The translations under genes were made by a program, and so were the position numbers. From contig JAJHRG010000001.1 of NCBI GenBank assembly GCA_020832905.1, forward strand, positions 360,617 to 424,616: DNA of 64,000 nucleotides. The letters run 5' to 3'. This document shows, one piece after another, positions 4,595-53,291 of this stretch; the first letter of the stretch is position 1; the number at the start of each line of letters is the position of its first letter. Origin of the DNA: Thermoproteota archaeon. Lineage in GTDB: Archaea; Thermoproteota; Methanomethylicia; Methanomethylicales; Methanomethylicaceae. The notes beneath the pieces were generated by a model, which saw nothing but the letters and a program-made list of their open reading frames with translations, had not been told where the DNA came from and searched no databases.

Positions 4595-4648
4595 AAATTA
4601 TTAATACTACCTGGAAATATATATGTTAATAATACGAGTTGAACAGCC

Positions 4649-4933
4649 ATGGCCCCTCCTTTATTTACACGACTTTACATTAATGGTCAAGTACTTTATG
4701 AAAAAGTAAAAGAAATTGCAAAAAATCAAAATTATGAAATTACTTATGAAGATTCTATAAATAAAATTCTTCATATTCATAAAAAAGCTCATGGTAGAAC
4801 AATTCATTTAATTATCTATATTGGTGATGGAAAAGATAGAAGTTTAGCTATAGATGTAAAACCTGGCTATGAAGGATTATCTATGGATTATGGAAGAAGA
4901 TTTCTTGAAGAAATTAAAAAAGTAGCTAGGTGA
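4649..4933 (+). CDS. hypothetical protein, with weak resemblance to half of a GNAT fold
   Basis: 94 aa, non-low-complexity ORF immediately upstream of the Mrp/hydrogenase string. No confident motif. Confidence 0.35.
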   Translation: MAPPLFTRLYINGQVLYEKVKEIAKNQNYEITYEDSINKILHIHKKAHGRTIHLIIYIGDGKDRSLAIDVKPGYEGLSMDYGRRFLEEIKKVAR

Positions 4934-48973: not shown

Positions 48974-50779
48974 TTGAAATATAGTGAACTTGTTGATTTT
49001 TATGAGAGAATTAGTCAAACAACAAGAAGACTAGAAATTACTGATTTATTAGTAGGACTATTTAGTAAATGTCCTCCAGATTTAATTGATAAAATTGTAT
49101 ACTTAACTCAAGGAAGAATTTTTCCTGAGTTTATTCCTTTAGAATTAGGAATGGGCGATAAAATGATTATTAGAAGTATTGCTCAAGCTGCTACAGTTAA
49201 AGAATCTGAAGTTGAACAACTTTATAAAACTACAGGTGATTTAGGTAAAGTTGCTAATATTCTTCTTTCTAAAGGTAAAAAACAAGCAACTCTTGATTTA
49301 TTTTCTTTTTCTCAGAAAAAAGAACCAATTACAATAGAGCGAGTATATAAAGATTTAGAGAAAATTGCAAAAGCTCAAGGTCCTGGTTCTCAAGAAGAAA
49401 AAATTCGTATACTATCTGATCTCTTAAGAGATGCTTCTCCAAGAGAAGCAATGTATATAGTACGTACAGTAAATGGAACTCTTAGACTTGGAGTTGCTGA
49501 TATGACAATATTAGATGCTTTAACAATTACTTATGTTGGATCAAAAGATGCTAGACCTATTGTTGAAAGAGCTTATAATCTTAGAAGTGATTTAGGTTTT
49601 GTTGCTAGAATTCTAGCAACTCAAGGAATAAATGCACTTAAAGACATAAAGCCAATGCCAGGTATACCTGTAAGACCAATGCTAGCTGAACGATTATCTG
49701 ATCCTATTGAAATTTTAAAGAAAATGAATGGTAAGTGTGCAGCTGAATATAAATATGATGGAGAAAGAGTACAAATTCATAAAATTAATGATAAGAAAAT
49801 AATATTATTTTCTAGAAGACTTGAAAATATTACACATCATTATCCTGATGTAATAGAATTTATTTCAAATAGTATTTCCTTAAATTCTTATATTATAGAA
49901 GGAGAAATAATTGCCATTGATCCTGATACAGGTGAATTTTTACCTTTTCAAGAATTAATGCATAGACGAAGAAAGTATGATATTGAAGAAGCAATGAAAA
50001 AATATCCTGCATCAGTAAGATTATTTGATATAATTTATGCTGATGGAATAGATTTTACATTAACTCCATATCCTAAGCGTAGAGAATTTTTAGATAAAGT
50101 TGTTAAAGAAAATGATAGAGTAAAACTTGCTGAACAGAAAATAATTGAAAATGTAGAAGATTTAGAAATGTTCTTTCATGAAGCAATTTCAAATGGATGT
50201 GAAGGACTTGTTGTAAAATCTCTTTCTTCAGAATCAATATATAGAGCAGGAGCAAGAGGATGGCTTTGGATAAAATATAAACGTGATTATAAGAGTGAAA
50301 TGATAGATACTGTTGACTTAGTTATAGTTGGAGGATTTATGGGAACTGGTAGAAGAGCTGGTTGTATTGGTTCATTACTTCTTGCTACTTATAATGATAA
50401 AAATGATACATTTGAAACTGTATGTAAATGTGCAACAGGATTTAGTGATGAAGAAATAAAGAATATGCGAGATATTCTAGCTCCTTATATAATTCCACAT
50501 AAACATCCAAGAGTAGAATCTAGAATAACTCCTGATGTTTGGGTTTTACCAGCTATTGTTATTGAAGTTATTGGAGCTGAAATTACATTATCCCCAGTAC
50601 ATACTTGTGGATTAAATACAATAAAAAAAGGTGCAGGTTTAGCAATTCGTTTTCCAAGATTTACTGGTAAATGGAGATATGATAAGAAACCTGAAGATGC
50701 TACAACTACTGATGAAATAATTGAAATGTATAAGAGGCAATTAAAGAAATTATATGAAGAAGTAGAAGTTACTTCATAA
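48974..50779 (+). CDS. lig: ATP-dependent DNA ligase
   Basis: 601 aa. Adenylation motif I KYDGERVQIHK, with OB-fold and DNA-binding domains. Probable TTG start. Confidence 0.9.
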   Translation: MKYSELVDFYERISQTTRRLEITDLLVGLFSKCPPDLIDKIVYLTQGRIFPEFIPLELGMGDKMIIRSIAQAATVKESEVEQLYKTTGDLGKVANILLSKGKKQATLDLFSFSQKKEPITIERVYKDLEKIAKAQGPGSQEEKIRILSDLLRDASPREAMYIVRTVNGTLRLGVADMTILDALTITYVGSKDARPIVERAYNLRSDLGFVARILATQGINALKDIKPMPGIPVRPMLAERLSDPIEILKKMNGKCAAEYKYDGERVQIHKINDKKIILFSRRLENITHHYPDVIEFISNSISLNSYIIEGEIIAIDPDTGEFLPFQELMHRRRKYDIEEAMKKYPASVRLFDIIYADGIDFTLTPYPKRREFLDKVVKENDRVKLAEQKIIENVEDLEMFFHEAISNGCEGLVVKSLSSESIYRAGARGWLWIKYKRDYKSEMIDTVDLVIVGGFMGTGRRAGCIGSLLLATYNDKNDTFETVCKCATGFSDEEIKNMRDILAPYIIPHKHPRVESRITPDVWVLPAIVIEVIGAEITLSPVHTCGLNTIKKGAGLAIRFPRFTGKWRYDKKPEDATTTDEIIEMYKRQLKKLYEEVEVTS

Positions 50780-50814
50780 AATAGAAAGATTTATATTTTA
50801 AGTTTTTTATACAA

Positions 50815-50925
50815 AATTGCCGATCTAAATATCGGTGATGAGAGGAGTAGCCACCCCCTTGATTGCCCAAAAAAATTGGGAACCCACGCTCATTCTTGAG
50901 CGGGGAGGTAGGCATAAAAAACCTA
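50815..50925 (+). ncRNA. candidate structured small RNA or 5' leader: a GC-rich island with three perfect hairpins (strand uncertain)
   Basis: Stems read directly from the sequence: ccgat/atcgg (50820-50835), cccaa/ttggg (50866-50880) and cgctca/tgagcg (50887-50902). These lie in a stretch far more GC-rich than the flanks, within a 160-nt intergenic gap. A GTGATGA C-box-like heptamer is present but no D box, so this is not a canonical C/D sRNA. Confidence 0.3.
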
Positions 50926-50939
50926 AAGGAGGGAAAAAT

Positions 50940-51188
50940 GTGGGATATCGTAATAAAGGCCACAAGAAATTTGGACAGAAATACGAAAGAATAGATCTTA
51001 GACCAAAACCAGTAAAAGAAGGAGAAGAATACGAAGTTGATATAAAGGAATTAAGTAGACGTGGAGAAGGAATTGCTCGTATCGAGGGATTTGTAATATT
51101 TGTACCAAATACGAAAATTGGTGATCATATAAAGATTAAGGTAACTAAAGTGGCCAAGAGATACGCTATAGCTGAGGTTATTCAGTAA
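50940..51188 (+). CDS. TRAM-domain (OB-fold) RNA-binding protein
   Basis: C-terminal EGEEYEVDIKELSRRGEGIARIEGFVIFVPNTKIGDHIKIKVTKVAKRYAIAEV is a typical stand-alone TRAM domain. Start placed at the GTG at 50940, preceded by aaggaggg. The track's longer N-terminal extension is a read-through of the GC-rich island. Confidence 0.65.
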   Translation: MGYRNKGHKKFGQKYERIDLRPKPVKEGEEYEVDIKELSRRGEGIARIEGFVIFVPNTKIGDHIKIKVTKVAKRYAIAEVIQ

Positions 51189-51251
51189 AATTAAATTCAA
51201 TTTTAAAATTTAATATAATTTTATTTTTTCTTTTTTATTTTGTGATCCTAA

Positions 51252-51992
51252 ATGATATCTATATTCACAAGCTTTGGTACATTAAAAGTAAATAATGATT
51301 TATCATTATTTATTAATAATAAAAAATTAACACCACAATTTAGAACTCTAAATGATATTTTTCCAGTTCTTTACACTACAGAAGATATAGAAATTTCAAA
51401 GGATACACCATTATATGCAATGTATAGAGGAGTATATAATGAGAAAGATGAAAGAATTTTCTTACAAAGAAAAATAAGATTTGATATTACTATAATGTCA
51501 AATATAACTATAGGAAGAGAATGGAACAAAACATTAGGTCATTATCATCCTATTGCTGAAAATAATCTTTCATATCCAGAATTATATCAAGTACTATATG
51601 GAAAAGCTACTTTTCTTCTTCAAAAAAAGGTAAATGATGAAATTATAGATTTTGTAATTGCAGAAGTAAAAGAAGGTGAAGCTTTTCTTATCCCTCCTAA
51701 CTATGGTCATGTTACTATCAATTCTGGTAATAAAATACTTGTAATGGCAAATTTAGTATCTAGTAATTTTCAATCTTTATATGAAGAATATATAAGACAT
51801 AAGGGAGCTGCATATTATTTACTTGTAGATGGCTCTCTTATACCAAATCCAAATTATAAAAAAATAGTAAGACCAAGATTTTCAAATAAGAGATTTCCTA
51901 TATCAAAAGATATTTACTCAGATTTTCTATCATGTCCATCTTGTTTTAATTTTCTTAATAAACCTTCATTAATATCTGATTTCTCTTTATGA
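51252..51992 (+). CDS. cupin-type glucose-6-phosphate isomerase (cPGI)-like protein
   Basis: 246 aa. The segment TLGHYHPIAE...ELYQVLYGKATFLLQ...IPPNYGHVTINSG parallels the Pyrococcus cPGI metal site (TKGHFH...E...PPYWAHRTVN). Lies immediately upstream of pgk and gap. Confidence 0.65.
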   Translation: MISIFTSFGTLKVNNDLSLFINNKKLTPQFRTLNDIFPVLYTTEDIEISKDTPLYAMYRGVYNEKDERIFLQRKIRFDITIMSNITIGREWNKTLGHYHPIAENNLSYPELYQVLYGKATFLLQKKVNDEIIDFVIAEVKEGEAFLIPPNYGHVTINSGNKILVMANLVSSNFQSLYEEYIRHKGAAYYLLVDGSLIPNPNYKKIVRPRFSNKRFPISKDIYSDFLSCPSCFNFLNKPSLISDFSL

Positions 51993-52052
51993 TTTTTTAA
52001 ATTTTTATATACCTTCTACTATTTTCCTTATTGTACGTAAATAGGTGATTAA

Positions 52053-53291
52053 ATGAAGTTTGGATTTTATACTATGGACGACTTTGACTTTAATGGAAAG
52101 AGAGTTCTTCTAAGAATTGATATTAACTCACCAATTGATCCTAATACAAATGAAATACTTGATGATTTTCGTATAAGATATCATGTACCTACAATACTAG
52201 AACTATTAGATAGGGGAGCATCTGTAACTATTTTAGCTCATCAAGGTCGTCCTGGTGATAATGATTTTACAACTTTAAGTAATCATGCAAAACTTTTATC
52301 TCATTACTTAAATAGAGAAGTAAAATATATAGAAGATATCTTTGGTCCTACAGCAAGATCATCAATATTATCATCAAAACCAGGAGATGTAATATTATTA
52401 GAAAATGTTAGATTTTACTCTGAAGAAGTAATTGAAAAAATACCTGAAGCTCAATCAAAAACATTTCTTGTACGCTTTCTTGCACCACTTTTTTCAATCT
52501 ACATAAATGATGCTTTTGCTACTTCACATAGATCTCATCCATCTCTTACTGGCTTCCCTATGGTTTTACCATCATGTGGAGGTAGATTATTAGAAAAAGA
52601 AGTAGAATCATTAAACTTAATAATGGAAGATTCCTTAAGACCAAGTGTATTTATACTTGGAGGTGGAAAAGTCTCAGATTCTTTACAATTAATAGAAGCT
52701 CTTCTTCAAAGAAATATTGCTGATAAGGTACTTTTAACAGGCTTAGTTTCTCATTTATTTATGATTGCAAAGGGTTTAAATCTCAATAGAGAAACTTTAC
52801 GAGTACTTGAGGGAAAAGGAATATATTCTCTTTTGCCAAGAGCACAACGTTTAGTTCAATCTTTTCCAGATAGAATAGTAGTACCTATTGATTCTGCTTT
52901 ACTTAAAAATGGTAATCGAGTAGAAGTTAGTAATGAAAACATACCTAATTTCTCTCCAATATATGATATTGGAGAGAATACTATTAAATTATATTCTGAA
53001 ATTATAAAAGATGCAAAAATAATTGTAGTAAGAGGACCTGCTGGCTATATAGAAGATGAAAGATTTAGTAAAGGAAGTGAAAATCTCTTAAAATGTATTG
53101 TAAATAGTAAAGGAAAGAAAATATTGGGAGGAGGACACTTAAGAAGGATAGCAGAAAAACTAAAAGTTATTGATAAAATTGATTACTTTAGTACAGGTGG
53201 TGGAGCATTTATTGCATTTTTATCAGGTGAAAAATTACCTGCAATTGAGGCTCTTATTATTTCTGCTAAAAAATTTAAACCTAATAAATAA
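52053..53291 (+). CDS. pgk: phosphoglycerate kinase
   Basis: 412 aa. N-terminal FNGKRVLLRIDINSP, with conserved hinge and C-terminal nucleotide domain. Confidence 0.9.
   Translation: MKFGFYTMDDFDFNGKRVLLRIDINSPIDPNTNEILDDFRIRYHVPTILELLDRGASVTILAHQGRPGDNDFTTLSNHAKLLSHYLNREVKYIEDIFGPTARSSILSSKPGDVILLENVRFYSEEVIEKIPEAQSKTFLVRFLAPLFSIYINDAFATSHRSHPSLTGFPMVLPSCGGRLLEKEVESLNLIMEDSLRPSVFILGGGKVSDSLQLIEALLQRNIADKVLLTGLVSHLFMIAKGLNLNRETLRVLEGKGIYSLLPRAQRLVQSFPDRIVVPIDSALLKNGNRVEVSNENIPNFSPIYDIGENTIKLYSEIIKDAKIIVVRGPAGYIEDERFSKGSENLLKCIVNSKGKKILGGGHLRRIAEKLKVIDKIDYFSTGGGAFIAFLSGEKLPAIEALIISAKKFKPNK

Follow-up and report, generated by a model that had tools for sequence, protein, structure and literature searches.

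A GC-rich island upstream of a TRAM chaperone gene in the Methanomethylicia as a probable structured mRNA leader with two competing predicted folds

The 5′ untranslated region (5′UTR) of the Escherichia coli cspA mRNA (Rfam cspA thermoregulator) is a structured leader of more than 100 nt in front of a small, abundant RNA-chaperone gene. Its Shine–Dalgarno sequence (SD) and start codon become more or less accessible through alternative folds, and a feedback by the chaperone itself has been proposed. The analogy to cspA was drawn in the TRAM literature itself (PMC6705878). TRAM0076 of Methanococcus maripaludis unfolds structured 5′UTRs and co-precipitates its own mRNA; the authors predict an autoregulation of this abundant stand-alone chaperone (PMC6705878). 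The target 5′UTRs of TRAM0076 are simple hairpins of 20–60 nt, described as transcription-attenuating, and no architecture of SD mimic and anti-SD was reported for them. For the TRAM genes of Methanolobus, no temperature-dependent alternative 5′UTR structures were predicted (PMC5572242). RNA thermometers (ROSE, fourU) and translational riboswitches with an anti-SD pair a pyrimidine strand with the SD and the start codon, and an alternative pairing frees the SD. In archaea, few cis-regulatory mRNA leaders are known to have experimental support.

The GC-rich island described here precedes the gene of a TRAM protein of the same family as TRAM0076 (PyTRAM equivalog); a relationship in sequence to the target 5′UTRs of TRAM0076 is not expected. 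It resembles the cspA leader in length, in position and in its predicted alternative folds. The two differ in that they share neither sequence nor structure, with no Rfam match to cspA at E ≤ 10; the host of the island is an archaeon, the TRAM fold is not a cold-shock domain and the predicted balance of the folds does not depend on temperature. The island also has the pyrimidine strand of the thermometers and anti-SD riboswitches. In contrast to these, it matches no family, its SD is predicted to open gradually with temperature and its two folds to stay isoenergetic. Most likely, the island is a new, narrowly distributed example of a familiar kind of element. The motif occurs in a single uncultured genus and all functional statements rest on prediction, which limits its practical weight.

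The window (the whole 64-kb stretch of DNA that was analysed) has a GC content of 27.8%, the island at 50815–50925 one of 46.8% (z = 3.9). This value is matched by 0.05% of the 111-nt windows, all of which overlap the island; it is the richest 111 nt in 64 kb. The preliminary description had reported a conspicuous GC-rich run of about 110 nt with three perfect hairpins, in a gap of 160 nt between a DNA ligase gene and the SD and GTG start of a TRAM gene. All of this was borne out: the hairpins lie at 50820–50835, 50866–50880 and 50887–50902, the ligase stop codon ends at 50779, and an SD at 50926–50933 and an in-frame GTG at 50940 follow 3′ of the island. The features of the locus are as follows; ON and OFF denote the two competing folds.

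50786..50798, plus strand: candidate archaeal promoter, a purine-rich BRE-like AAAGA followed by the TATA box TTTATAT(T) at 50791–50798.
50820..50835, plus strand: P0, the putative 5′-terminal hairpin (CCGAU-CUAAAU-AUCGG), read in the sequence as ccgat-N6-atcgg; extendable to 50816–50839 by G-U and A-U pairs.
50835–50841, plus strand: GTGATGA, a C-box-like heptamer read in the sequence.
50837..50849, plus strand: conserved purine-rich linker GAUGAGAGGAG(U/A)A, with an AUG whose frame is not conserved; GATGAGAGGAG is invariant in three alleles.
50850..50860, plus strand: C-rich 'anti-SD' strand GCCACCCCCUU, predicted 5′ strand of helix P1 (ON) or partner of SD and start codon (OFF); invariant.
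50866..50880, plus strand: P2, the hairpin CCCAA-AAAAA-UUGGG, read in the sequence as cccaa-N5-ttggg; the CCC/GGG pairs are kept and the loop is 4–5 nt shorter in L002 and L030.
50883..50905, plus strand: P3, the hairpin CCC-A-CGCUCA-UUCU-UGAGCG-GGG; its core at 50887–50902, read in the sequence as cgctca-N4-tgagcg, has a 3-bp extension with a bulged A.
50903..50913, plus strand: SD mimic GGG-A-GGU-A-GGC, the predicted 3′ strand of P1; GGAGGTAGGC is invariant.
50914..50925, plus strand: A-rich single-stranded linker, AUAAAAAACCUA, ACUAAAGACUUU and ACUAAAAACUUA in the three alleles.
50926..50933, plus strand: Shine–Dalgarno sequence AAGGAGGG; AAGGAGGGAA is conserved 5′ of TRAM orthologues.
50940..51188, plus strand: TRAM-domain RNA-chaperone gene with GTG start, 82 aa, stop codon included in the coordinates.
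51220..51241, plus strand: T-runs TTTATTTTTTCTTTTTTATTTT 3′ of the TRAM stop, likely an archaeal terminator.

The ORF 5′ of the island encodes an ATP-dependent DNA ligase, 94% identical to the ligase of the Methanomethylicota MAG WYZ-LMO11. WYZ-LMO11 is a genus of the family Methanomethyliaceae with a genome of 1.1 Mb (PMC9886072), and the window is assigned to this genus of the Methanomethylicia. The gene order ligase, TRAM, cupin-type glucose-6-phosphate isomerase (PGI) and phosphoglycerate kinase (PGK) is kept across Methanomethylicia contigs. The TRAM product matched the TRAM family of Pfam (E = 4.6e-17) and the PyTRAM equivalog of NCBIfam, a TRAM domain-containing RNA chaperone (NF053605, 95 bits against a cutoff of 85).

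Three distinct alleles of the island were found, all in close relatives within the clade of the genus WYZ-LMO11. They are represented by the window, by L002 (identical in L039 and L040) and by L030 (identical in L031 and L032; also present in L029 and in the truncated L001). The TRAM proteins of the alleles are 84–87% identical. A genome scan based on the ligase recovered the linkage of ligase and TRAM together with the island in the nearest relatives only (L001 and L002); the other 26 loci had no adjacent TRAM gene. A covariance model of the island (R1) scored these type A alleles with 127–137 bits and the leaders that precede TRAM orthologues outside this clade (types B and C) with 14–20 bits, which came from the shared SD and start region. 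With R1, no second copy of the island was found in the 64-kb window, and the island was also single-copy in the fetched loci. A loose pattern, GCCACCCCC-N25-55-GGAGGTAGGC, had at least 120 matches in metagenomes. The matches listed were due to chance and lay in GC-rich contigs; among them was no homologue of the island and none with a nearby TRAM gene. Scans of viral contigs for the island and for an insertion carried by L029 found nothing.

The position of the island points to a leader of the TRAM mRNA. The promoter region AGATTTATAT is invariant in the window, L002 and L030. In loci of types B and C, a AAGTTAATA box occupies the corresponding position, directly behind the ligase stop or overlapping with it. 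Judged from spacing only, transcription probably starts near the T/G step at 50818/50819, about 25 nt 3′ of the TATA box. A start near 50819 would place P0 at the very 5′ end of the RNA. Archaea use oligo-T terminators. Neither a T-run nor a conserved TATA-like sequence was present at 50899–50939, a stretch that includes the A-rich linker and the SD, in the three alleles. The last helix ends at 50913 and is separated from the SD by 12 A-rich nt. The TRAM gene and the likely terminator behind it appear to form a monocistronic unit. Since neither a second promoter nor a terminator precedes the SD, the island is most simply the body of a 5′ leader of about 120 nt. It lies on the same strand as the TRAM gene, between the conserved TATA box and the SD, and in all carrying loci (L002, L029–32, L039 and L040) it is located directly 5′ of TRAM. 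Among the readings offered by the preliminary description, that of a regulatory 5′ leader of the TRAM gene is supported by this arrangement. P0 was also considered as a minus-strand terminator. This was rejected: no minus-strand gene lies upstream of P0 and the T-runs are not conserved.

The sequence 50815–50945 has a predicted folding energy of −40.8 kcal/mol, against −32.2 ± 3.5 kcal/mol in dinucleotide shuffles (z = −2.5); three of 200 shuffles fold as well as the real sequence. The opposite strand of the region folds about equally well (z = −2.5). Folding energy alone therefore carries no strand information, and the strand was taken from the context.

Two folds compete for the C-rich strand. 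Its sequence CCACCCCCUU is complementary to the internal SD mimic GGGGAGGUAGGC and to the real SD with the start codon. In the ON fold, GCCACCCCCUU pairs with 50903–50913 as helix P1. Together with P2 and P3, P1 makes up a closed three-way junction, and the SD remains single-stranded. The OFF fold consists of CCUU/AAGG, CCC/GGG and CCA/UGG pairs with the SD side at 50926–50933 and the start side at 50941–50943. The GGG at 50903–50905, freed from P1, pairs with CCC 50883–50885 and lengthens P3. Because both the SD mimic and the P3 extension need these three nucleotides, inner P1 cannot form together with extended P3. The minimum-energy fold of an RNA truncated before the SD is the ON junction, and that of an RNA including the SD is OFF, in all three alleles at 37 and 65°C. 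Constrained folding gave a gap of 1–4 kcal/mol between ON and OFF across the alleles. For the window allele, four explicit conformers lie within about 1.5 kcal/mol between 37 and 75°C, with a gap that stays about constant. Differences of 1–4 kcal/mol are within the error of the folding model. The SD of the alleles has a predicted unpaired probability of 0.16–0.32, the 3.5–8.5th percentile of leaders with a dinucleotide-shuffled upstream part, and the modelled SD sequestration exceeds chance only marginally. In silico, the SD of the window allele opens gradually, with an unpaired probability of 0.24 at 37°C, 0.35 at 70°C and 0.45 at 80°C. A gap that is constant with temperature and a gradual opening are not like a classical thermometer. 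As in an SD-sequestering switch, the SD-complementary strand has in prediction an alternative partner of comparable stability, either AAGG-A-GGG...UGG or GGG-A-GGU-A-GGC.

The best explanation is that the island forms the structured core of a 5′ untranslated leader of about 120 nt on the mRNA of the stand-alone TRAM chaperone, with two competing folds. As a whole, this explanation has an even chance of being right, and its parts differ. That the island is a structured cis leader of the TRAM mRNA is quite probable. A switching of the SD between a hidden and an exposed state is a tentative proposal from the folding models, and the TRAM protein as its effector is more tentative still. Transcription would begin about 25 nt past the TATA box, near 50819, and cross the island into the TRAM ORF at GTG 50940. 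The leader would start with P0, followed by the purine-rich linker and the three-way junction of P1, P2 and P3. During RNA synthesis, the C-rich strand would pair with the SD look-alike GGGGAGGUAGGC; the junction would be closed and the SD free. After transcription has passed the SD and the start codon, the strand could pair with AAGG-A-GGG and with the UGG of the GUG start in a fold of equal stability; P3 would be lengthened and the ribosome-binding site hidden. A trans-acting factor, not heat, may set the balance between ON and OFF, because the folds are almost isoenergetic at all temperatures tested in silico. The most economical effector would be the TRAM chaperone itself, as a feedback. 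P0 at the 5′ end may protect the mRNA. Composition, position, conservation, the compensated pairs of P3, the lack of coding potential and a bistability in prediction are shown by the sequences. We infer the start of transcription, both folds in vivo, the effect on translation and the identity of the effector. A C-rich strand that chooses between an SD decoy and the real SD is a concrete model, testable by mutation.

A more far-reaching version would make the leader a sensor of chaperones: a kinetically trapped, bistable RNA that forms the SD-open junction co-transcriptionally and is converted into the equally stable SD-closed fold only through unwinding by the TRAM protein that it encodes. TRAM synthesis would then be set by the free RNA-chaperone capacity and not by temperature or a metabolite. 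We consider this decidedly improbable, and we know of no described archaeal counterpart of such a translational feedback device.

The comparison of the alleles indicates constraint on the leader, visible but modest at the present divergence. Leader identity between the window and L030 is 0.87, in comparison to 0.67–0.81 for four-fold sites of the flanking genes and 0.80–0.82 for AT-rich spacers. Invariant in the three alleles are the TATA region AGATTTATAT, the linker GATGAGAGGAG, the strand GCCACCCCCTTGA, the segment GGAGGTAGGC and the SD. Differences concern hairpin loops, the length of P0 and two pairs of P3. The P3 loop is 1 nt longer in L002 and L030. P0 is a stem of 5 bp with N6 in the window and of 7 bp, CCGAUUC-N9-GAAUCGG, in L002 and L030. 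The change of loop and half-site spacing favours a nucleic-acid hairpin over the operator of a dimeric protein.

Wherever a stem position is substituted, its partner has changed as well, and the indels all lie in loops. Both substituted pairs belong to P3: a pair of the core changed from C-G to U-A in L002, and a pair of the extension from C-G to U-A in L002 and L030. In the model of P1, P2 and P3, all 51 of the 51 pair cells hold standard pairs, against 29–45% with partners slid by 1–3 columns. With three sequences, the shuffle control of the whole structure is weak: 54 of 500 shuffles reached the observed score. Covariation in related genomes had been suggested as a check on the hairpins. 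In the three alleles, P3 has compensatory changes; P1, P2 and the OFF helix are invariant and show no covariation. Among the competing helices, a compensatory change is found in the extended P3 alone. The covariation of CCC/GGG to CCU/AGG favours extended P3, which competes with inner P1. In the models, extended P3 would belong to the OFF fold or to a weaker variant of ON in which P1 is reduced to its outer six pairs.

Static structure is the rival that survives best. P0 and the P1/P2/P3 junction would always be closed, stabilise the mRNA against 5′–3′ exonucleases and insulate an open SD without any switching. The predicted location of P0 at the 5′ end is in agreement with this, as is the P1 junction, which is the minimum-energy fold of the nascent RNA and lies within about 1 kcal/mol of OFF. 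Further support comes from the TRAM leaders of other clades. The type B leader (L033, L034 and L042) is a single 15-bp hairpin, GRCAUAAGUARAGGG...CUCCUUUUACUUAUGUC. The type C leader, GGGY...[GAAGGA-variable-UCUUUU]...RCCY, was found in L035–38, L041, L043–45, L166, L167, L170 and L172, some of them unlinked to the ligase. In the type C alignment, 91% of the proposed-helix cells are paired, against 34–66% when slid. The automatic type C alignment had no double changes; inspection by eye showed C-G as the innermost pair of P1 in four sequences and U-A in L035 and L037.

Leaders of types B and C occupy the same place as the island before the same orthologous gene: promoter, folded domain, A-rich linker, AAGGAGGGAA and start codon. 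The AAGGAGGGAA SD is kept with all three leader types, with GAGGAGGGAG in L042. As in the island, an SD-like purine arm is paired with a pyrimidine arm. Sequences and folds differ from those of the island, and these self-contained hairpins are predicted to leave the SD open, with a probability of 0.85–0.99 in most, above 96–100% of the shuffles. As modelled, structured leaders are a general property of this group of TRAM orthologues, and the SD-sequestering alternative would be either specific for the island or an artefact of the energy model. The idea of one 'anti-SD switch' shared by every TRAM leader was rejected: types B and C keep the SD open. The switch is thus not family-wide and, by analogy, the real fold of the island could be the closed junction. 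Against a static leader, the full-length minimum-energy fold pairs the SD in all three alleles, and the CCC/GGG to CCU/AGG covariation speaks for extended P3 over inner P1. The exact complementarity of one strand to the SD mimic and to SD and start would be left unexplained. Static structure is unlikely on balance, and the leader with two competing folds is the preferred reading.

An RNA acting in trans, a folded domain of about 95 nt with its own transcript or cleaved from the TRAM 5′UTR, is clearly unlikely. GC islands are a classic signature of stable RNAs in AT-rich archaea, and the island in a genome with 28% GC fits this, as do its compact fold and the TATA box upstream. No oligo-T terminator is located between 50913 and the SD in any allele, and in the absence of a conserved second promoter, TRAM would be left without one. 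The free-standing small RNA offered by the preliminary description is therefore improbable as a separate gene, with the SD only 12 nt downstream of the island; an RNA processed out of the 5′UTR could still arise. The absence of a second copy in the window and the constant position directly 5′ of TRAM also argue against it.

The known RNA classes gave no support for an RNA acting in trans. The Rfam scan that the preliminary description had proposed returned no matches at the gathering thresholds (Rfam 15) in the window, L002, L029, L030, L034 and L043. At E ≤ 10, the island and the L029 allele had noise only; the best match reached 14.8 bits against a threshold of 98. ARAGORN detected no tRNA or tmRNA. 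Archaeal guide sRNAs of the box C/D and H/ACA classes are, like the island, short, GC-rich and intergenic, and the window allele has the heptamer GUGAUGA. In contrast to these sRNAs, the island has no D, D′ or C′ box, no ACA box and no partner for a K-turn, and the heptamer is not conserved: it is TTGATGA in L002 and CGGATGA in L030, with GAUGA common to all. The earlier judgement that this is not a canonical C/D sRNA thus stands, since CTGA is absent from 50815–50925 on the plus strand and no C/D family of Rfam appeared at E ≤ 10. The island was also agreed to be too short for SRP RNA or RNase P RNA. The suggested H/ACA-like guide fell away. The alleles share no ACA/ANA box behind the last helix, where the window has AUA and L002 and L030 have ACU, Rfam had no match and the fold is a three-way junction instead of a pocket hairpin with K-turn architecture. 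A K-turn was rejected by inspection: the GA that it requires is missing from the partner strand 5′ of P0.

The island may also be seen as the fossil or landing pad of a mobile element, foreign GC-rich DNA that entered a short ancestral leader and has no function in itself. It is restricted to one genus-level clade and absent from the leaders of types B and C, its composition is atypical for the genome, and the same spot is polymorphic for a 319-nt insertion in L029, where an independent contig also ends. This origin is very unlikely: stem substitutions are all compensated and indels occur in loops only, terminal repeats are missing, the island is single-copy in the window and the fetched loci, and its place between promoter and SD is precisely conserved in the three alleles.

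A ligand riboswitch, in which a small molecule bound by the junction decides whether the anti-SD pairs with the SD mimic or with the SD (or an SD pseudoknot), is highly improbable. The junction with its invariant joining strand and linker and the mutually exclusive SD pairing are reminiscent of translational riboswitches. No known class matched, the distribution is extremely narrow, and the gene downstream encodes an RNA chaperone instead of a metabolic or transport protein and has orthologues with unrelated leaders.

The weakest rival is that the island codes for protein, either for 35 residues at the N-terminus of a TRAM protein of 117 aa or for another small product. It can draw on a frame open from GTG 50835 into the TRAM ORF of the window and is refuted by the comparison of sequences, which leaves it practically no probability. 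The 233 homologues align with the C-terminal 82 residues alone of the 117-aa query, the best matches having 81–84 aa, and begin at the same residue as the product of GTG 50940. The 35-aa extension had no Pfam match. In-frame stops precede the GTG in L002, L030 and L029 (...GGRH*RL*GGKN|VGYR), and loop indels of 4–5 nt and 1 nt leave no frame intact on either strand among the three alleles. Homologue length, the stops of the sister alleles and the indels place the TRAM start at GTG 50940, 6 nt (AAAAAT) behind the conserved SD. The ORF at 50835–51188 is an artefact, as had been suspected of its N-terminal extension, and a likely mis-annotation is corrected from 117 aa to 82 aa. An upstream ORF from the conserved AUG in GAUGAGAGGAG was also rejected. 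The first nine or so codons are alike merely through identical nucleotides; then the frames diverge into 25 codons in L002, about 50 out-of-frame codons in L030 and the TRAM fusion in the window. No consistent SD was found 5′ of this AUG among the alleles.

The insertion in L029 deserves a separate description. It is 319 nt long, has no ORF and is located in the 5′ arm of P2 (L029 about 1115–1433). It is absent from L030–32, which are otherwise identical. QNVI01000016 (L001), an independent NCBI contig, stops exactly at the base of the insertion. No terminal inverted repeats and no target duplication were found for it. A reading as BHB intron was rejected by inspection: a 4-bp central helix with flanking 3-nt bulges could not be drawn at the junctions. 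A small non-autonomous element is one possibility. The insertion has a T7 run near the 5′ end, an internal TATA-like box and a GC-rich 3′ half. It carries GGGGTGGC, a perfect complement of GCCACCCC in the leader, followed by a near-copy of CCTTGAATGCC.

The TRAM gene for an RNA chaperone belongs to a conserved order of ATP-dependent DNA ligase, TRAM, cupin-type glucose-6-phosphate isomerase and phosphoglycerate kinase (window 48974-53291). This order is kept in Methanomethylicia contigs with a TRAM identity of only 67-70%, and is missing in the remaining ligase-bearing archaea sampled.

TRAM orthologues of other Methanomethylicia and related archaea have two further conserved structured leaders:

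Type B leader, located about 70 nt before the TRAM start: a 15-bp hairpin (L033, L034 and L042)
Type C leader, located about 80-90 nt before the TRAM start: GGGY...[GAAGGA...UCUUUU]...RCCY (L035-38, L041, L043-45, L166, L167, L170 and L172)

In both types, an A-rich linker and then AAGGAGGGAA follow downstream of the structured part. Structure prediction suggests an unusually open Shine-Dalgarno sequence (SD) in both. Some type C leaders are located at loci without ligase linkage. Rfam has no family for type B or type C leaders.

Within the GC-rich leader of the window, the purine block GAUGAGAGGAG (50837-50847) between the 5'-terminal hairpin P0 and the junction helix P1 is invariant. It has no assigned pairing partner in any of the predicted leader folds and represents a third SD-like tract of the leader. 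The block is a candidate protein-binding site or ribosome stand-by site. Further upstream, after the TATA box and before the predicted leader start, the window has a T6 run, GTTTTTTAT (50803-50812). It may serve to terminate the ligase gene, or it may be a second TATA-like box. Relatives have CTTTAATATC in place of this segment.

In L029, one of the loci with the island-type leader (ENA ERZ27249349 k141_27484), the leader is interrupted by an insertion without an ORF:

L029 1115-1433: 319-nt insertion, at window position ~50867 within the 5' arm of helix P2

The insertion is absent from the otherwise identical alleles L030-32. Its insertion point is exactly the base at which the contig NCBI QNVI01000016 ends (L001 4906). 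A T7 run lies close to the 5' end of the insertion, a TATA-like box lies inside it, and its 3' half is GC-rich. One segment of the insertion, GGGGTGGC, is the complement of the leader sequence GCCACCCC, and a near-copy of CCTTGAATGCC comes after this segment. Neither TIR nor TSD, nor a BHB intron motif, was found for the insertion, and it matched neither Rfam nor viral contigs.

At another locus with the island-type leader, L002, a GC-rich stretch 3' of TRAM, ccccaacggcccttgcgcgagtaaggtccgtcgctgc (4618-4655), closes the 4.6-kb contig. Other alleles have the GPI gene at this place. The GC-rich end could have arisen by rearrangement or as an assembly chimera, or it could belong to another structured RNA that the contig end truncates.
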